Assembly (NCBI RefSeq): GCF_041886205.1
Contig: NZ_CP169029.1
DNA: 64,000 nt
Strand: one strand, 5' to 3'
Origin: Escherichia coli
Lineage (GTDB): Bacteria > Pseudomonadota > Gammaproteobacteria > Enterobacterales > Enterobacteriaceae
Part shown: positions 192-11,570 of the stretch, one piece after another
How the letters are laid out: every line of letters begins with the position of its first letter
Position numbering within the stretch: position 1 is the first letter of the stretch
Notes under the pieces: model-generated
Told to the model about the DNA's origin: nothing
Database searches by the model: none
Seen by the model: only the letters and a program-made list of their open reading frames with translations
Translations under genes and position numbers: made by a program

Positions 192-1715
192 TCACTCAAC
201 CACAACCTTCACCTTCGGTTTAGAAAGGATAATTTTGACCAGGTCGATGTATGTAACAGGTTTATAGAAATAATAACCCTGCTGAAATGTGATATTATTT
301 TGGTTCAGATAGTCAAGTTGTTCTTTCGTTTCGACACCTTCAGCGACGATACTGATCGAAAGTTTACGCGCCAGATCCAATACACAATCCAGAATTCGGG
401 TTGATTCTGGGTCTGCGTTTACGCGGCCAACGAAACTGTGATCAATTTTGATATAATCAATATGCAGGTCATGAAGATAAGAAAGCCCTGAGTAGCCAGT
501 ACCGAAATCATCCAGCGCGATGACAAAACCATTTTCATGCAGAATGTTCAACCGCTGAACCAGACTTTCATCAACATTCAATGGCTCACGCTCGGTGACT
601 TCCAGAACAAGGTTTAAATCGCGGCGGGTAAAACTGTCACGGAAATTTAAACACTCGTCGACAAACGTCGGCGAAATAATATGCGAAGCGCTAAAATTAA
701 TTCCAATATGAAAACCTTCCGGCAGTTTACTCGCGATAGCGTTCATCTGTCTGGCAACCTGATTCATCAGGCTTTGTGTAAGCGGAACGATTAATCCGGA
801 TTTTTCAGCAAGTGGAATAAATGCCGCGGGTGAAATATATCCACCGTGAGGTTGTTTCCAGCGGGCTAACACCTCAACTCCCCGCAATGTCCCTTCCCGA
901 CCATTTACCACAGGTTGGTAAAAAGGGACGATCTCCCCATTATTTATTGCCCGTCGCAGGATCTCTTCAGGCGTTGCGCTTTTATTGAAATACCTATCAA
1001 GCAGGAAAGCAGCGGCGCAGGCGATTAACAGAATAAATATCAAAATCCCAAAGCCTTTATCGATAAGTCTGTAGAAGCTAAAGAGTGGCGGCGGGTTAAA
1101 GATAATAGTGAAATGATATTTTGTGGAGTGAACCTTCTCGGTATAGGGATAATGTCCATTAAGTGTCATCACATCACCCGTAGGCCCAATAATGTCATCC
1201 GCCACGCGTAATACATACCTTACCCCTTTCAAGGGTACATTAAGCGCCCCACGAATATGCTGATCGCTTATCGTAACCAAAATGCGCGTATCTGCAAATT
1301 GGTTCTGATAGAGCAGGATAGGTAATCTATTAACGGTGTCGATTGCTGGAGCCAACAGTAAATTACTGTCCGGGACAACAGGAATACGAGACAACAGGAC
1401 CCGATTCCCAGGCAGGGATGTACACCAGACTATTCCCTGTTTGAGAATGATGATTGTGCGCAGGTGAGGTTTCAGAGCTGCTTCAGTGCCAAGCTGATAT
1501 TGCTCCTCGAGGTCGCATTCCTTCCCGGCAATGTTAACCGCTGTTTGAGTCGCCTGTGACGCTTCTTCAAGTATATGATTGATATTGTTGGCGGCATATC
1601 TCGCTCCCGACAGGTACTCTGCTTTTGCGGAATACCAGAGCTGGATGTTCAAAATAGCGACACCGGTTATAAATAAGCATATCGCAACGAGGATGGGTAT
1701 GAGTGTATTGCGCAT
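192..1715 (-). CDS. pdeG: CSS-motif EAL-domain c-di-GMP phosphodiesterase PdeG (YcgG); start taken at internal Met giving 507 aa
   Basis: 521-aa ORF on the track; N-terminal TM segment plus C-terminal EAL-like domain; synteny next to ymgC as in K-12. Confidence 0.8.
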   Translation of the reverse strand: MRNTLIPILVAICLFITGVAILNIQLWYSAKAEYLSGARYAANNINHILEEASQATQTAVNIAGKECDLEEQYQLGTEAALKPHLRTIIILKQGIVWCTSLPGNRVLLSRIPVVPDSNLLLAPAIDTVNRLPILLYQNQFADTRILVTISDQHIRGALNVPLKGVRYVLRVADDIIGPTGDVMTLNGHYPYTEKVHSTKYHFTIIFNPPPLFSFYRLIDKGFGILIFILLIACAAAFLLDRYFNKSATPEEILRRAINNGEIVPFYQPVVNGREGTLRGVEVLARWKQPHGGYISPAAFIPLAEKSGLIVPLTQSLMNQVARQMNAIASKLPEGFHIGINFSASHIISPTFVDECLNFRDSFTRRDLNLVLEVTEREPLNVDESLVQRLNILHENGFVIALDDFGTGYSGLSYLHDLHIDYIKIDHSFVGRVNADPESTRILDCVLDLARKLSISIVAEGVETKEQLDYLNQNNITFQQGYYFYKPVTYIDLVKIILSKPKVKVVVE

Positions 1716-1898
1716 TTGCTTGTCCCGGCCAAAGGGTTTAATACATGAAAATGCCATTCATTCGCTCGCGCTGGCATCTACAGAGAGCATGGTAGAGAGC
1801 ATAGGAAATATCCACGCCGAAGATAAAATTTTCTCCATCTTGATCTAACCCATTAATTATTGAGCATAATGTAGGCAGGATTAAATAAATTAGGTGGG

Positions 1899-1952
1899 AT
1901 ATCAGGCATCAAGAATGGAGAGCGAGAACTCTCCATTCTTGACACCTGATAT
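1899..1952. repeat. Long imperfect inverted repeat (about 25-bp arms; perfect 13-bp inner stem CAAGAATGGAGAG / CTCTCCATTCTTG around a 6-nt loop)
   Basis: Read directly from sequence; lies between ymgC stop and pdeG start. Confidence 0.7.
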
Positions 1953-2046
1953 TGCGGACATAATAAGAAAGCATAACGCCTGAAATGCTCACTTTGCATC
2001 AGCATGGTGATACAGCTGATGTTTATTCTAAAACCTTACTCAAGTT

Positions 2047-2295
2047 CTAAGAGAGCACGGATTCCCTGTCATTAATAATGATATCCGTTAGTGTAGTCTT
2101 ATGCATTTCAATGTACTGCAATATTTGCAGATAGAGATCAGAAAGAATCACACTGGTTTCATCTTTTAAACGCAAGCGTAAAGCCTGATCAATAATATGA
2201 CTATCAACATACCCATGCGTCATGAACACCTCCCTCTCGAGATTTTTAAACAAAGCACATTGAAAAATAAATCTCTCTGGGATTGAATTATTCAT
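2047..2295 (-). CDS. ymgC: YmgC, last gene of ycgZ-ymgA-ariR-ymgC operon
   Basis: 82-aa ORF; operon synteny. Confidence 0.75.
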   Translation of the reverse strand: MNNSIPERFIFQCALFKNLEREVFMTHGYVDSHIIDQALRLRLKDETSVILSDLYLQILQYIEMHKTTLTDIIINDRESVLS

Positions 2296-2407
2296 GTCAG
2301 CCTCGTAGAAATATTAACCCAATAAAATTATGCTGTGTATAGTCTAAAGCGACAGACAAAAATAAGATGAATGAGTTTTCTATAAACTTATACTTAATAA
2401 TTAGAAG

Positions 2408-2674
2408 TTACATATCATCAGCTGTGTATCGCAACACGATTTCCAGTGTTTTTCTAATCACATCAGCTTTGAGAATATCACTTGTTGTTTCCAGGGAGTG
2501 TATCAGACTTAAGATAATATTTTTATTATTAACATTATCGCCTGAAAGCATTAAATTGGTGACAGCCTGCCCTAACACAGCTGACTCTTCTTCTAACAAA
2601 TTACCCGAACTGCGAAAGTAACTTGCTAACGCTTTATCAGTTATTGCATTATGAATTGTAGTATCTTCAAGCAT
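2408..2674 (-). CDS. ariR: AriR (YmgB) biofilm/acid-resistance regulator
   Basis: 88-aa ORF; recognised sequence and synteny. Confidence 0.8.
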
Positions 2675-2702
2675 GGTAACCTCTCATCTTACTTATGAAA
2701 TT

Positions 2703-2975
2703 TTAATGTATTCTGTTTATTTTCTTACCATTGAACATACTTTTATTGTCAGCTGTCGCTGTTCTTCGGTTTAGCCCTCCTGAATCACTATTGCTAAAAT
2801 CACGAATTATGCTGTCGATTAAATCGCGTCGGAAAGCATCTTCCTCAGCCGATTTCATTACGAGTAATTGCTTAATAAGAGTCTGCAATGAAAAATTTAT
2901 CTTCATGCGCAGTATCTGGAGCACCGCCTGGCCAGTAATTTCATATTTTATACGTTCATTATCAGATGTCTTCAT
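2703..2975 (-). CDS. ymgA: YmgA, RcsB-connector family
   Basis: 90-aa ORF; synteny. Confidence 0.75.
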   Translation of the reverse strand: MKTSDNERIKYEITGQAVLQILRMKINFSLQTLIKQLLVMKSAEEDAFRRDLIDSIIRDFSNSDSGGLNRRTATADNKSMFNGKKINRIH

Positions 2976-3017
2976 AACGACTTCATAGCTAACCTGTTAA
3001 ATAATCAGGCTGTTGCA

Positions 3018-3248
3018 TTATTCAAAAAGCAACCCAATTAGTGCATTATAATGTTTCTGTTCCCCTGTCGCTTGTTCCAGTCGGCATAGAAGTTTGGCAC
3101 AAAGCGACTTTCGACTCAGATTACGTCCATCTTTCAAAATCTCAGTCACAATTTCCCCGAGAGTTTCCTGCTGAGTAGGCAAGTTAGCTTTTGCAAAGTA
3201 ACGAGTGATTGCTCCCGCAGAATCTAAAGTCACTGAATTTTGATGCAT
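3018..3248 (-). CDS. ycgZ: YcgZ, first gene of BluR-repressed operon
   Basis: 76-aa ORF beginning MHQNSVTLDSAGAITRYF; divergent from bluF. Confidence 0.8.
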   Translation of the reverse strand: MHQNSVTLDSAGAITRYFAKANLPTQQETLGEIVTEILKDGRNLSRKSLCAKLLCRLEQATGEQKHYNALIGLLFE

Positions 3249-3302
3249 GCTACGCCTCTGTTAAAAATGTTAATCAATGTTAAGTGAGGTAACAATAGCA
3301 AA

Positions 3303-3324
3303 CTTGTACGAAATATGTGTACAG
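3303..3324. promoter_or_regulatory. Candidate operator in ycgZ promoter region (TTGTAC-N9-GTACA partial palindrome)
   Basis: Seen in sequence about 55-75 bp upstream of ycgZ start; related to the TTGTACAA palindromes upstream of bluR. Confidence 0.3.
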
Positions 3325-3874
3325 AATGATAAATTAATTTTTTGCATTTAGTGCTAATACATACAAAACAACAAGTTATGATAAAAATTATTGCATCATT
3401 TAAATGACAACCTATACAAAAATTTTCGCCAACTCATCTTTAACTTTTTCCATTTTTTATCAATGTAAAGAAACAGTTATGTTTTGGTATTAAAAGAAAG
3501 ACACCGGAAGATATGTCTGTTACCGTCTTACTCTCACCTCTCCCATTACCCTGGACAGTTAATGCTTACCACCCTTATTTATCGTAGCCATATACGTGAC
3601 GACGAACCTGTCAAAAAAATCGAAGAAATGGTTTCGATAGCAAATCGCAGGAACATGCAGTGTGACGTAACAGGGATCTTACTGTTTAATGGTTCTCATT
3701 TTTTCCAGCTTCTGGAAGGTCCGGAAGAACAGGTTAAAATGATATATCGGGCTATATGTCAGGATCCACGGCACTATAATATTGTTGAACTGCTGTGCGA
3801 TTACGCGCCTGCTCGCCGTTTTGGCAAAGCGGGAATGGAATTATTTGATTTGCGCTTGCACGAGCGAGATGACG

Positions 3875-3883
3875 TTTTACAGG
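3875..3883. repeat. Left copy of 9-bp target-site duplication TTTTACAGG
   Basis: Identical 9-mer immediately flanks both IS ends. Confidence 0.9.
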
Positions 3884-4940
3884 GGCTTTGTTGAATAAAT
3901 CGAACTTTTGCTGAGTTGAAGGATCAGATCACGTATCTTCCCGACAACGCAGACCGTTCCGTGGCAAAGCAAAAGTTCAAAATCACCAACTGGCCCACCT
4001 ACAATAAAGCCCTCATCAACCGTGGCTCCATAACTTTCTGGCTGGATGATGAAGCTATTCAGGCCTGGTATGAGTCAGCAACACCTTCTTCACGAGGCAG
4101 ACCTCAGCGCTATTCTGACCTTGCCATCACGACTGTGCTGGTCATTAAACGCGTATTCAGGCTGACCCTGCGCGCTGCGCAGGGCTTTATTGATTCCATT
4201 TTTTCTCTGATGAACGTTCCGCTACGCTGCCCGGATTACAGCTGTGTCAGCAGGCGGGCAAAGTCGGTTAATGTCAGTTTCAAAACGCCCACCCGGGGTG
4301 AAATCGCACACCTGGTAATTGATTCCACCGGGCTGAAGGTCTTCGGTGAAGGCGAGTGGAAAGTCAAAAAGCATGGCCAGGAACGCCGCCGTATCTGGCG
4401 TAAGCTGCATCTCGCCGTTGACAGTAAAACACATGAAATCATCTGCGCTGACCTGTCGCTGAACAACGTTACGGACTCAGAGGCCTTCCCCGGGTTAATC
4501 CGGCAAACCCACCGGAAAATCAGGTCAGCCGCCGCCGATGGCGCTTACGATACCCGGCTATGTCACGATGAACTGCGGCGTAAGAAAATCAGCGCGCTTA
4601 TCCCTCCCCGAAAAGGTGCGGGTTACTGGCCCGGTGAATATGCAGACCGTAACCGTGCAGTGGCTAATCAGCGAATGACCGGGAGTAATGCGCGGTGGAA
4701 ATGGACAACAGATTACAACCGTCGCTCGATAGCGGAAACGGCGATGTACCGGGTAAAACAGCTGTTCGGGGGTTCACTGACGCTGCGTGACTACGATGGT
4801 CAGGTTGCAGAGGCTATGGCCCTGGTACGAGCGCTGAACAAAATGACGAAAGCAGGTATGCCTGAAAGCGTGCGTATTGCCTGAAAACACAACCCGCTAC
4901 GGGGGAGACTTACCCGAAATCTGATTTATTCAACAAAGCC
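3884..4940 (+). mobile_element. IS903-group insertion sequence (IS5 family), 1057 bp, 18-bp terminal inverted repeats GGCTTTGTTGAATAAATC
   Basis: Terminal IRs read at 3884-3901 and 4923-4940 (reverse complement); single transposase ORF; 9-bp TSD. Confidence 0.9.
3961..4884 (+). CDS. IS903-type DDE transposase (307 aa from GTG start; track ORF starts at upstream ATG 3916)
   Basis: Protein VAKQKFKITNWPTYNKALINRGS... recognised as IS903/IS102-like transposase. Confidence 0.85.
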   Translation: MAKQKFKITNWPTYNKALINRGSITFWLDDEAIQAWYESATPSSRGRPQRYSDLAITTVLVIKRVFRLTLRAAQGFIDSIFSLMNVPLRCPDYSCVSRRAKSVNVSFKTPTRGEIAHLVIDSTGLKVFGEGEWKVKKHGQERRRIWRKLHLAVDSKTHEIICADLSLNNVTDSEAFPGLIRQTHRKIRSAAADGAYDTRLCHDELRRKKISALIPPRKGAGYWPGEYADRNRAVANQRMTGSNARWKWTTDYNRRSIAETAMYRVKQLFGGSLTLRDYDGQVAEAMALVRALNKMTKAGMPESVRIA

Positions 4941-4949
4941 TTTTACAGG
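4941..4949. repeat. Right copy of 9-bp target-site duplication TTTTACAGG
   Basis: Seen in sequence. Confidence 0.9.
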
Positions 4950-5961
4950 CCGTATTCGACAAAGGCACATCAAAATTTCAGCTAACTTATGATGACAGAG
5001 CGCTACAATTTTTTCGTACTTTTGTCCTTGCAACCGAACAATCAACCTATTTCGAGATCCCTGCCGAAGATTCCTGGCTTTTTATCGCTGACGGATCTGA
5101 TAAAGAACTTGATTTCTATACCCTTTCACCAAATATAAACGACCGCTTTGCCTTTCATCCAATTGTCGATCCCTTATCGCGGCGGATAATCGCTTTTGAA
5201 GCCATTGTGCAAAAAAATGAAGATAGCCCATCAGCTATAGCGGTTGGGCAGCGTAAAGACGGGGAAATCTACAAAGCGGATCTCAAAAGTAAGGCGCTTG
5301 CATTCGCGATGGCACACGCACTTGAGCTCGGTGATAAAATGATTTCAATCAATCTATTACCTATGACCCTGGTTAACGAACCTGACGCAGTCTCTTTTTT
5401 ACTTAATGAAATAAAGGCCAATGCTCTGGTGCCTGAACAAATCATCGTTGAATTTACTGAAAGTGAAGTCATATCTCGGTTTGATGAGTTTGCCGAAGCG
5501 ATTAAATCGCTAAAGGCTGCTGGTATCAGTGTAGCAATTGATCATTTTGGCGCAGGTTTTGCTGGTTTGTTACTCCTGTCACGCTTCCAGCCTGACAGAA
5601 TTAAAATCAGTCAGGAATTGATTACCAATGTTCATAAAAGTGGGCCACGGCAGGCAATTATTCAGGCGATCATAAAATGCTGTACATCACTTGAAATTCA
5701 AGTCAGTGCTATGGGCGTGGCAACACCAGAAGAGTGGATGTGGCTTGAATCCGCAGGAATTGAGATGTTTCAGGGGGATCTGTTTGCTAAAGCTAAATTG
5801 AATGGTATCCCTTCCATAGCGTGGCCGGAGAAAAAATAATTTTCAGCACATTCTTTCACATGATTTCAGTAAATCATCGTGAAAATGAATACGTTATGTT
5901 TAAATTTAATCCACATTAAAAATAATGTTTCATCCAAATTAGCTGAAATCTTATTTATACT

Positions 5962-5989
5962 TTGTACAATTTTAGCGTATATTGTACAA
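5962..5989. promoter_or_regulatory. Two copies of the self-complementary octamer TTGTACAA spaced 20 bp start-to-start, upstream of bluR
   Basis: Read directly; 55-80 bp upstream of bluR start; position typical of an operator within a promoter. Confidence 0.35.
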
Positions 5990-6043
5990 AGTATTATTGG
6001 GTCGTGTACAGGCGACGGAGATTTATGACCGCAAGGAGGAATT

Positions 6044-6775
6044 GTGGCTTATTACAGCATTGGTGATGTTGCTGAACGTTGCGGGATTAATCCTGTCACT
6101 CTCCGGGCCTGGCAACGCCGCTACGGTTTGTTAAAACCACAGCGCAGTGAAGGCGGACACCGACTCTTTGATGAAGAAGACATACAACGTATCGAAGAGA
6201 TCAAGCGTTGGATAAGTAATGGCGTCCCTGTAGGCAAAGTTAAAGCATTACTGGAAACCACCAGCCAGGATACGGAAGATGACTGGAGCCGCCTGCAAGA
6301 AGAGATGATGTCAATTCTTCGTATGGCTAATCCTGCCAAACTACGCGCAAGAATTATTTCACTGGGTCGAGAGTACCCAGTAGATCAATTGATTAATCAT
6401 GTTTACCTTCCTGTTCGCCAGCGTCTCGTGCTTGATCACAACACCTCCCGCATTATGAGCAGTATGTTTGACGGCGCATTAATTGAATATGCAGCAGCCT
6501 CGCTTTTCGAAATGCGCCGTAAGCCCGGTAAAGAAGCCATTCTGATGGCGTGGAATGTTGAAGAGAGAGCACGATTGTGGCTGGAAGCATGGCGTTTATC
6601 ATTGTCAGGATGGCACATTTCTGTTCTTGCTGATCCCATTGAATCGCCGCGCCCGGAACTGTTCCCGACGCAAACATTGATTGTCTGGACAGGCATGGCA
6701 CCAACAAGAAGGCAAAACGAACTTTTACAACATTGGGGTGAGCAAGGTTATAAAGTCATCTTTCATGCCCCCTAA
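6044..6775 (+). CDS. bluR: MerR-family repressor BluR (YcgE)
   Basis: 243-aa ORF with N-terminal MerR HTH ([27 protein letters not shown]); synteny. Confidence 0.85.
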
Positions 6776-8024: not shown

Positions 8025-8279
8025 ATGCAAAATCAAGAAATGAATATCCAAATTAAACTATACGCTTATTTAAATAAATATGACACTCGCCTTACAGAAG
8101 AAAAAATTGCGATTGATAAAGCTATTAGAGAATTACATTTTAGCAGCGAGCATGTTGATAACAAAAAAATAATACTGAAGTTACTTTCATTTTTATCATA
8201 TACAGATGATGTTGTTGAAAAAGACATTATCAGAAATACATTGGAAGTGGTTCTTCTTTTTACTTCCGATGATATTTAA
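8025..8279 (+). CDS. AriR/YmgB-family paralogue (84 aa)
   Basis: C-terminal half KIILKLLSFLSYTDDVVEKDIIRNTLEVVLLFTSDDI parallels Ari[39 protein letters not shown] in this same window. Confidence 0.6.
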   Translation: MQNQEMNIQIKLYAYLNKYDTRLTEEKIAIDKAIRELHFSSEHVDNKKIILKLLSFLSYTDDVVEKDIIRNTLEVVLLFTSDDI

Positions 8280-8948: not shown

Positions 8949-10199
8949 TTACATGTTCTTGATGATCGCATCACCAAATTCTGAACATTTCAGCAGTTTA
9001 GCGCCTTCCATCAGACGTTCGAAGTCATAGGTTACGGTCTTGGCGTTGATTGCGCCTTCCATACCTTTAACAATCAGGTCTGCGGCTTCAATCCAGCCCA
9101 TGTGGCGCAGCATCATCTCAGCAGAGAGGATGATAGAGCCAGGGTTTACTTTGTCCTGACCGGCATATTTCGGCGCAGTACCGTGGGTGGCTTCAAACAG
9201 GGCGCATTCGTCACCGATGTTTGCGCCAGGGGCGATACCAATACCACCAACCTGCGCTGCCAGGGCGTCAGAAATGTAGTCACCGTTCAGGTTCATACAG
9301 GCGATAACATCATATTCAGCCGGACGCAGCAGGATCTGTTGCAGGAACGCATCAGCGATCACGTCTTTAATGACGATCTCTTTGCCGGTATTCGGGTTTT
9401 TAACTTTCAGCCACGGGCCGCCGTCGATCAGTTCTCCGCCAAACTCTTCACGCGCCAGCTGGTAGCCCCAGTCTTTAAACGCGCCTTCGGTGAACTTCAT
9501 GATGTTGCCTTTGTGCACCAGGGTCACAGAGTCACGATCGTTAGCAATTGCGTATTCGATCGCTGCACGAACCAGACGTTTGGTGCCTTCTTCCGAACAC
9601 GGCTTAATACCGATACCGCAATGTTCCGGGAAGCGAATTTTCTTCACGCCCATCTCTTCACGCAGGAATTTAATCACTTTCTCGGCGTCGGCAGAGTCAG
9701 CTTTCCATTCGATACCCGCATAAATGTCTTCCGAGTTTTCACGGAAGATAACCATATCGGTCAGTTCAGGGTGTTTAACCGGGCTTGGAGTGCCCTGATA
9801 GTAACGTACCGGACGCAGGCAGATGTAGAGATCCAGTTCCTGACGCAGGGCAACGTTGAGAGAACGAATACCGCCACCAACCGGAGTGGTCAGCGGGCCT
9901 TTAATGGCAACGCGATATTCACGAATCAGATCAAGGGTTTCAGCAGGCAGCCAGACATCCTGACCATAAACCTGTGTGGATTTTTCACCGGTGTAAATTT
10001 CCATCCAGGAGATTTTACGCTCGCCTTTATAGGCTTTCTCGACTGCAGCGTCGACCACTTTCAGCATGGCTGGGGTTACATCTACACCGATTCCATCACC
10101 TTCAATGTAAGGGATAATCGGATTTTCAGGAACGTTGAGTTTGCCGTTTTGCAGGGTGATCTTCTTGCCTTGTGCCGGAACAACTACTTTACTTTCCAT
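8949..10199 (-). CDS. icd: Isocitrate dehydrogenase (NADP), native C-terminus with no e14 junction
   Basis: 416-aa [41 protein letters not shown]... Confidence 0.97.
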
Positions 10200-10659
10200 T
10201 CACCTCTCCTTCGAGCGCTACTGGTTTGCTCGTCTGCCACCACGTTGCATATGCGTTTGCGTCCTGCGATACGGATGCTTTAGAGCAATTTTTGTTAATG
10301 ATTTGTAATTGGCTTGTCAATACTACCCTATTGTTTGCCGTCATGAAAGATGCGCGTTATTAGGCTATAATGCGGCAATTCATAATCTGTGAAAATACCA
10401 TGCAAAAAACTTCTTTTAGACCAAAGACAGTATTTTTCAGACCTTCAAATAAGGTATTAAATATCAATAATTTACACCAGATTTTAAGCAATAAAAAAAA
10501 CCACCAGAGATAACTAACAGGGTGCTATTTGGTCAAAATTTGACATTACTCGATTCAGCGACTAACTCACTTTGAGCACTATTGGGAAAATTATCAAAAG
10601 TCATGGTTGAAGCGACAAGCAACGAGTAAATTATGGCATCCACCCTTTTTGAGGTTCAC

Positions 10660-10752
10660 ATGAAACGCTTTGCACTGATAGCTGTGACACTCGTTGCCTT
10701 TACTGGTTCTAGTTCTGCATCTGCTGCAACCGAAGAAATCAACTTCAAGTAA
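10660..10752 (+). other. 30-codon mini-ORF encoding a signal-peptide-like sequence (MKRFALIAVTLVAFTGSSSASAATEEINFK), in frame with the downstream 149-aa ORF but separated by TAA and TGA stops
   Basis: GAGG 5 nt upstream of ATG; frame relationship counted from coordinates (10786-10660 = 126). Confidence 0.4.
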
Positions 10753-10785
10753 CAGAAACACTATATAACAATGAAGTGTTGAAAA

Positions 10786-11235
10786 ATGGATACTACCGAA
10801 GAACGCAATGGAACATATTTCTACAGAGGACACCCGAACCTGTCCAAAATAGAACTACTCAACGTCATATTCCTTGAAGAATTCTGTAAGGAATTGGGGA
10901 TTGATTCGGTATCAGGTGCAGCAATCTTATCTGGTCAACCTTGGCTGGGTACAAGAGCGAAGCCGCAAGGGGCAACCCTGGGAACAAGTGTTGTCTCAAA
11001 GTATGCGCGTATACTGATGAGAGATGCACGCATGCCTTTTGGTATTTCTGTTCATACACCAGTGGGGGTAAGGATGCAGAAATCTAATAAGCTTGCTGCA
11101 ATTATCGCTCGTTGGGTCCCGTGGATTGGTTGGGCTTCACTGTCGATGAGTCTTTACAGGGTTTCGACTCGTACCCAGGAAAAATACAATCTGATTGCCA
11201 AACCTCAAGACCGTATTAAGTGGACTTCCTTCTAA
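10786..11235 (+). CDS. Hypothetical protein (149 aa), hydrophobic C-terminal segment; possible remnant of a secreted protein or toxin
   Basis: Track ORF; no convincing RBS of its own; stop overlaps start of next ORF (TAATG). Confidence 0.45.
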   Translation: MDTTEERNGTYFYRGHPNLSKIELLNVIFLEEFCKELGIDSVSGAAILSGQPWLGTRAKPQGATLGTSVVSKYARILMRDARMPFGISVHTPVGVRMQKSNKLAAIIARWVPWIGWASLSMSLYRVSTRTQEKYNLIAKPQDRIKWTSF

Positions 11236-11570
11236 TGGCGACAACAATCACAGACGAAGTTTTAGCACTGTTCCGTGATGAGATTCCAGGTTATCAGGAT
11301 GACCACGGGAAGGAAATTCCGTTAGAACTGGACTCTGATTTGTTCGACTATCCACGAGATGATATAGAGGACGCTATACGGAAATACAAAGAGAGGTTTG
11401 GGATTAACCTGGATAATCTGGACTGGTCTTTGTACCTTCCGTGGGAGTCTGCACCATTGCTTCAACGATGGTTCAAGCTCAAGCGGGAAGAGGTAGAAAC
11501 AACACGTTTACCGTTAACTGTACGGATGTTTGCAGAATCAGCAGAAGCGGGAAAATGGCTGTATCAGTAG
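11235..11570 (+). CDS. Hypothetical small acidic protein (111 aa from ATG in TAATG overlap; track gives GTG start at 11220)
   Basis: Track ORF; translationally coupled to upstream ORF; hairpin and T-rich tract just downstream. Confidence 0.5.
   Translation: MATTITDEVLALFRDEIPGYQDDHGKEIPLELDSDLFDYPRDDIEDAIRKYKERFGINLDNLDWSLYLPWESAPLLQRWFKLKREEVETTRLPLTVRMFAESAEAGKWLYQ

Follow-up and report, generated by a model that had tools for sequence, protein, structure and literature searches.

An intact IS903-group element splits bluF between its BLUF and EAL domains in a strain of Escherichia coli

Organization of the bluF locus

The 64,000-nucleotide stretch of Escherichia coli DNA analysed here (the window) carries a bluF gene that is interrupted by an insertion sequence (IS). 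The gene is identified as bluF by its domain content, by its synteny and by its 100% identity to annotated bluF. It is divergent from ycgZ-ymgA-ariR-ymgC, with ymgC, ariR, ymgA and ycgZ all intact on the minus strand beside it, and bluR is the next gene downstream, the gene order that has been described for this locus (PMC3509220). The features of the region are as follows.

2047–3248, minus strand: ycgZ-ymgA-ariR-ymgC operon, the target of BluR; intact (coordinates transferred from the annotation of strain 6EVA)
About 3305–3323: TGTAC...GTGTACA motifs in the ycgZ promoter region; candidate BluR operator (motif match only), untouched
3562–3883, plus strand: 5′ fragment of bluF, codons 1–107 and the first base of codon 108, covering the BLUF domain
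3562–3894, plus strand: truncated open reading frame of 110 aa, 107 BluF residues followed by Gly-Leu-Cys and a TGA in the left IS end
3875–3883: left copy of the 9-bp target-site duplication, TTTTACAGG, directly adjoining the left IS end
3884–3901, plus strand: left terminal inverted repeat, GGCTTTGTTGAATAAATC (repeat scan)
3961–4884, plus strand: transposase gene with a GTG start, 307 aa; the single long open reading frame of the element
4923–4940, minus strand: right terminal inverted repeat, an 18-bp perfect reverse complement of GGCTTTGTTGAATAAATC (repeat scan)
4941–4949: right copy of the 9-bp target-site duplication, TTTTACAGG, directly adjoining the right IS end
4941–5839, plus strand: 3′ fragment of bluF, codons 105–403 and the stop codon, comprising the linker and the degenerate EAL domain
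6044–6775, plus strand: bluR, MerR-like repressor of 243 aa; intact, with its own promoter, and annotated as bluR in collinear strains

An intact IS903-group element

The IS occupies 3884–4940 (1057 bp), with its transposase in the same orientation as bluF (plus strand). A search of the 64-kb window for GGCTTTGTTGAATAAATC with up to two mismatches finds the two terminal repeats and nothing else, with no matches in 100 dinucleotide-preserving shuffles, and the chance of a perfect 9-mer match at one given position is about 4e-6. The transposase has the Pfam domains DDE_Tnp_1_5 (4e-39) and DDE_Tnp_1 (7e-33), scores 357.6 bits against NCBIfam transpos_IS5_2 (NF033579; cut-off 140 bits), and contains Asp 121, Asp 193 and Glu 259, which we take from the IS903 literature to be the catalytic triad. 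An alternative start codon, the TTG at 3916, gives a product of 322 aa; it is the start of the mechanically called open reading frame and is also the one chosen by PGAP in other genomes. An earlier note on this DNA had described 18-bp inverted repeats bounding a 1057-bp element, a single 307-aa DDE transposase and a perfect 9-bp target duplication, and all of these are reproduced; the coordinates that it gave, 3875–4949, run exactly from duplication to duplication.

This is, as the earlier note had proposed, an intact IS903-group element (IS5 family): its length of about 1057 bp, its perfect 18-bp ends, the 9-bp duplication and the single IS5-type DDE transposase of about 307 aa are all features of that group. 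Copies with 100% identity to it, labelled 'IS5-like element IS903B family transposase' by RefSeq, occur on many E. coli chromosomes as well as on E. coli and Klebsiella pneumoniae plasmids, and further copies at 95–99.7% identity are found on Enterobacter and Serratia plasmids; a match to the element is present in 1,993 of 5,426 complete E. coli genomes. IS903B has been described as 1057 bp long with 9-bp direct repeats (PMC10513040). Its relatives include IS903 of Tn903 and IS102 of pSC101. IS102 is also 1057 bp long and has the same 18-bp ends, but its ungapped identity to the window element is 92.7% (77 of 1057 positions differ). The element is thus most likely IS903B, a name that derives from the RefSeq/PGAP labels of the identical copies; it differs from those copies in nothing, and the insertion site alone is new.

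The preferred target of IS903 is the palindromic sequence WTTYA-N9-TRAAW (PMC2577343, Table 1). The 5-bp flanks of TTTTACAGG in the window are TGACG and CCGTA, which fit at two of five and one of five positions, respectively. This poor fit does not count against membership of the IS903 group, because the motif is a preference and not a requirement; it does lead us to reject a sequence-specific hotspot at this exact site.

Within the IS there is also an 11-bp perfect stem, with arms at 3902–3912 and 3968–3978, that flanks the GTG transposase start at 3961; the predicted fold of 3884–3995 is -28.5 kcal/mol, with a z-score of -2.0. The IS reads in the direction of bluF, so transcripts running through from the bluF promoter would include both arms of the stem. 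Occlusion of transposase translation in read-through transcripts is known for IS10 and IS50, and by analogy the stem could act in the same way here.

Interruption of bluF

The bluF gene starts with the ATG at 3562, and its transcription starts 30 nt upstream of this codon (PMC3509220). The IS follows nt 322 of the gene, which is the first base of codon 108 and the last base of the target. The rebuilt BluF protein (403 aa) has a Pfam BLUF domain at residues 2–92 and an EAL domain at residues 173–388, and aligns over its full length with Klebsiella BlrP1 (3gfx_A, E = 1.5e-98). The insertion at codon 107/108 is therefore inter-domain, in accord with the earlier note, which had placed it after about codon 107 and between the BLUF and EAL domains. 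With no intact full-length open reading frame, bluF is a pseudogene in the window strain.

The 5′ fragment is 100% identical to bluF of 6EVA and wlxctx60, the two closest strains described below, and the translation of its open reading frame ends in ...DDVLQ-GLC followed by the stop codon. The 110-aa peptide would end within a helical region beyond the BLUF core, as judged from the BlrP1 alignment, and an NCBIfam search of the 110-aa fragment gave no family match. The earlier note had proposed that a BLUF-only product could still be made, from an open reading frame at 3484–3894; such a product is possible, but the start of that frame needs correction. The TTG at 3484 is upstream of the point at which bluF transcription has been reported to begin (PMC3509220), and the predicted product is therefore one of 110 aa from the ATG at 3562.

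The 3′ part of bluF (4943–5839) is open and in frame through the native stop codon, but the right IS end places an in-frame TGA ahead of it, at 4922, and the first in-frame ATG, GTG or TTG of this part is the GTG at 5207 (codon 196), already within the EAL domain. The EAL half is thus left with none of its native promoter, ribosome-binding site and start codon. The earlier note had described this half as uncoupled from its promoter; the promoter is indeed lost, although that description is incomplete in that the translation start is lost as well.

A consensus scan of the right IS end revealed no promoter-like site, and in the region as a whole promoter-like sites occur at chance level (7 found, 4.8 expected). 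An outward promoter in the right IS end driving the EAL half was rejected, the only candidate being a weak, chance-level site at 5163–5190, inside bluF. A fusion frame leaving the IS into bluF was likewise rejected; there is none in the window, because of the TGA at 4922.

Comparison with closely related strains

The nearest complete genomes are those of 6EVA (NZ_CP138428.1; human, Singapore) and wlxctx60 (NZ_AP045833.1; bear, Japan). The window is 99.98% identical to both along its length.

Both strains carry an intact bluF of 1212 nt. Removal of the IS together with one of the two 9-mers from the window yields a bluF identical to these genes at 1212 of 1212 nt, which bears out the claim of the earlier note that the frame is otherwise intact on both sides, and the 19 kb to the right of the IS are a 100.0% match to both strains. 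BLAST comparison of the window with the reconstructed 6EVA segment gives two collinear pieces, which over 62.9 kb contain 10 mismatches and one gap. The pieces overlap by exactly the 9-bp target, TTTTACAGG, of which the empty site has a single copy; the IS is the sole structural difference. On the chromosomes of 6EVA and wlxctx60 a chimeric bluF plus IS query matches one place, bluF, and there is no IS903-group copy. The arrival of the IS in the lineage of the window is therefore recent, as the earlier note had suggested. Identical copies are common on enterobacterial plasmids, and the IS903B of the window strain is plausibly a recent acquisition from a plasmid.

One contig of an independent short-read assembly in Logan (SRR28800585), found by exact-sequence look-up of the 110-aa fusion peptide, covers the left junction. 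It matches window positions 562–3912 with 0 mismatches and extends 29 nt into the IS, and the 110-aa product is called as such on it. The exact bluF::IS junction of the window is absent from the 5,426 complete E. coli genomes, although the search for it revealed IS903-group elements elsewhere in bluF in four of them, and a literature search on bluF together with insertion sequences returned nothing relevant for E. coli.

An IS-mediated rearrangement, a deletion and a composite transposon were also considered and rejected: the window has no second copy of the element, and on either side of the IS its collinearity with 6EVA is exact. We conclude with high confidence that this is a real, simple and very recent IS903B insertion in bluF of a strain nearly clonal with 6EVA and wlxctx60 and, jointly, that the resulting allele is null or strongly hypomorphic. 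Nothing in the analysis establishes the event as more than a neutral or nearly neutral strain polymorphism. Its only novelty is the particular bluF allele, both the mechanism and the element being already known.

Other IS903-group insertions around bluF

The rebuilt bluF was joined to the IS in both relative orientations, and these chimeric queries were searched in 5,426 complete E. coli genomes; a place covering at least 80% of the query was taken to denote an IS903-group element no more than about 1.6 kb from bluF. Such a place is present in 15 of the 5,426 genomes. Ten of these were read, one for each distinct place span; genomes grouped below share place span and piece count, and the first named is the one that was read. 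Each of the ten has a different site, flanked by a perfect 9-bp duplication of its own, and the sites are spread over 3.6 kb from -1377 to +2225 (relative to the bluF ATG as +1); the window insertion, at +322, is an eleventh event. The sites are as follows.

-1377, in ymgC: SY3626; orientation as bluF
-102, in the ycgZ-bluF intergenic region: 19SZHZ886Rt, S163-2, TUM9754 and DETEC-P61; orientation as bluF
+131, in bluF: PSS-08-2; orientation as bluF
+341, in bluF: HH194M, ET151 and ET450; orientation as bluF
+524, in bluF: LR-62-2; opposite orientation
+741, in bluF: TW10690; orientation as bluF
+1251, in the bluF-bluR intergenic region: E8; opposite orientation
+1817, in bluR: W409; orientation as bluF
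+2194, in the bluR-ycgX intergenic region: GD33; orientation as bluF
+2225, in the bluR-ycgX intergenic region: FLI21; opposite orientation

Four of these ten events are in bluF, one is in bluR, one is in ymgC and four are intergenic. With the window, bluF has therefore been knocked out by IS903-group elements five times, and there are in addition one bluR knockout and insertions in the promoter region. Control segments were joined to the IS and searched by the same method in a single orientation, and the counts of genomes with an IS within about 1.6 kb are 12 for bluF, 0 for pepT, 0 for fhuE and 4 for iraM-icd; pepT and fhuE are GC-typical loci, and the iraM-icd segment is adjacent to the blu region and AT-rich. 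The blu region is itself 38% GC, compared with 50% for the window, and near-matches to WTTYA-N9-TRAAW are about 2.5 times denser in it. The repeated insertions probably reflect the AT-rich, dispensable ymg-blu-iraM island as a favoured landing zone for IS903-group elements, with the proviso that the counts are small and that the genomes are non-independent samples. A stronger reading, that the ymgC-bluF-bluR-ycgX-iraM island is a true IS903-group hotspot and that the BluF/BluR module has been repeatedly and independently lost in natural E. coli, we regard as rather doubtful. Were it correct, it would point to relaxed or negative selection on light sensing in some niches.

In the PSS-08-2 allele (L009, 2629–3777), PGAP calls a 382-aa 'diguanylate phosphodiesterase' frame that starts inside the right IS end and continues into bluF. 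It is a possible IS-bluF fusion.

Predicted consequences for the BluF-BluR pathway

In K-12, the MerR-like repressor BluR acts at the ycgZ promoter and is antagonised there by BluF in blue light; the BluR operator contains GTACA motifs that overlap this promoter, and bluF and bluR are transcribed separately, with the bluR transcript starting 54 nt upstream of its start codon (PMC3509220). The ycgZ promoter motifs, bluR and the region upstream of bluR are all free of insertion damage in the window.

The allele is best explained by a textbook mechanism, DDE transposition with cuts staggered by 9 bp. On this explanation an active IS903B copy transposed into the chromosomal bluF of a strain nearly clonal with 6EVA and wlxctx60, the transposase cut at TTTTACAGG, and repair duplicated the 9-mer; bluF was split at codon 107/108. 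The native promoter can still drive the 5′ part, from which a 110-aa BLUF-only peptide could be made, and the linker-EAL part has lost promoter, ribosome-binding site and start codon. The net outcome would be a null or strongly hypomorphic bluF allele. Light-activated BluF would no longer remove BluR from DNA and, as BluR and its operator are intact, ycgZ-ymgA-ariR-ymgC should stay repressed in blue light and at low temperature. This regulatory consequence is carried over from the K-12 work and is expected by analogy with it. A polar effect on bluR was considered and seems unlikely, given the separately mapped transcription start of that gene.

The earlier note had treated the EAL half of BluF as the part that binds BluR. 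The EAL domain does contact BluR, but in two-hybrid assays the N-terminal domain does so too (PMC3509220), and the idea of a functional uncoupling is only partly right because both domains make this contact. Some residual activity of the 110-aa fragment is conceivable, because in the two-hybrid assay the N-terminal domain of BluF interacts with BluR even on its own; the BLUF peptide may retain such activity, but this is not the reading that we favour.

Alternative explanations

IS copies are a classic source of misassembly, and it might be supposed that the assembler misplaced a repeat copy into bluF. This is hardly credible in the face of the perfect duplication of a 9-mer that is present once in the empty site, flanks on both sides that are exactly collinear with 6EVA, and a left junction that is included in the short-read assembly SRR28800585. 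It could also be argued that the gene is split but still functional, such that the BLUF-only peptide, or an EAL fragment made by read-through or from an IS-internal promoter, continues to engage BluR or MlrA, either constitutively or in response to light, and the pathway is rewired rather than abolished. The bluF promoter, ribosome-binding site and first 107 codons are indeed intact, and with the transposase gene and bluF reading in one direction, the 3′ half could be reached by read-through transcripts. However, translation of that half faces the in-frame stop at 4922 and the lack of an in-frame ATG, GTG or TTG before codon 196, in the EAL domain; the right IS end has no promoter-like site in the scan, and the regional count (7 sites, 4.8 expected) is at chance level; the end of the peptide falls in a stretch that, past the BLUF core, still aligns with BlrP1; and anti-repression has been demonstrated for the full-length protein. 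We consider a functional split gene very unlikely.

It is also unlikely, though less so, that loss of the gene was selected, with inactivation of the blue-light pathway being adaptive in some niches and the window insertion being one of several parallel knockouts. The ten other independent IS903-group insertions near bluF, with four events in bluF and one in bluR, would accord with this, as would the absence of matches at pepT and fhuE (0 genomes each) when set against 12 for bluF in the same orientation. Nonetheless, the neighbouring AT-rich iraM-icd segment has matches too (4 genomes), several of the insertions are intergenic, the numbers are small and the genomes are non-independent; moreover, the region is low in GC (38%, against 50% for the window) and has 2.5-fold denser near-matches to the IS903 target. 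Target preference and dispensability suffice for the pattern. A simple and recent insertion that inactivates bluF thus remains the interpretation that we prefer.

Comparable alleles and significance

The closest parallel for the element is the insertion of IS903B in Klebsiella mgrB (PMC10513040), where the same element, with 9-bp direct repeats, gives a simple knockout of a small regulatory gene. Plasmid-borne IS903B copies are the likely donors in both cases. The two differ in that the mgrB knockout was colistin-selected and has a clear phenotype, whereas the bluF allele of the window is known from sequence alone. For the gene, the closest parallels are the bluF::IS903-group alleles at nt 341, 131, 524 and 741, which involve the same gene and IS group, have 9-bp duplications and are bluF pseudogenes in RefSeq. 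Their sites differ from nt 322 of the window and some differ in orientation or in IS variant, the variants including one of 1056 bp and one with 69 differences in TW10690. In the K-12 bluF (ycgF) knockouts, bluF::kan (Tschowri et al. 2009, 2012), the BluF anti-repressor is lost while bluR and the ycgZ operon are intact, and the expected phenotype is that BluR repression is not relieved; the window allele differs in being natural and in keeping a BLUF-only open reading frame.

The insertion represents routine pseudogenisation by a very common enterobacterial IS, and its main value lies in correct annotation, as a bluF pseudogene and an IS903B. By analogy with K-12, the window strain is a probable natural BluF-null, in which ycgZ-ymgA-ariR-ymgC, and hence the Rcs pathway, would be expected to stay uninduced by blue light at low temperature. 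The bluF+ strains 6EVA and wlxctx60 would form a ready natural isogenic pair with it, and the recurrent insertion of IS903-group elements at this AT-rich locus could serve in studies of how an IS chooses its target, or of how dispensable light sensing is in E. coli.

Neighbouring features

Annotation transfer from 6EVA places icd, followed directly by STM2901-family and DUF1493 genes, at about 8949–11570 of the window, and no prophage is integrated at icd in the window lineage. Between ycgX and iraM lies a YmgB/AriR-family paralogue, at about 8025–8279 of the window (L004, 9076–9330; L003, 9076–9331). In wlxctx60 this paralogue appears as two overlapping open reading frames, apparently owing to a 1-nt indel that sets it apart from 6EVA and the window.

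The bluR promoter region contains a perfect 10-bp inverted repeat, CTTTGTACAA-N12-TTGTACAAAG, at 5960–5991, just upstream of the transcription start expected 54 nt before the GTG at 6044, and GTGTACA is also present nearby, at 6005–6011. The repeat includes GTACA, a motif that it shares with the operators of BluR and MlrA (PMC3509220), and from this match it may be a site of bluR autoregulation or of cross-regulation by MlrA.
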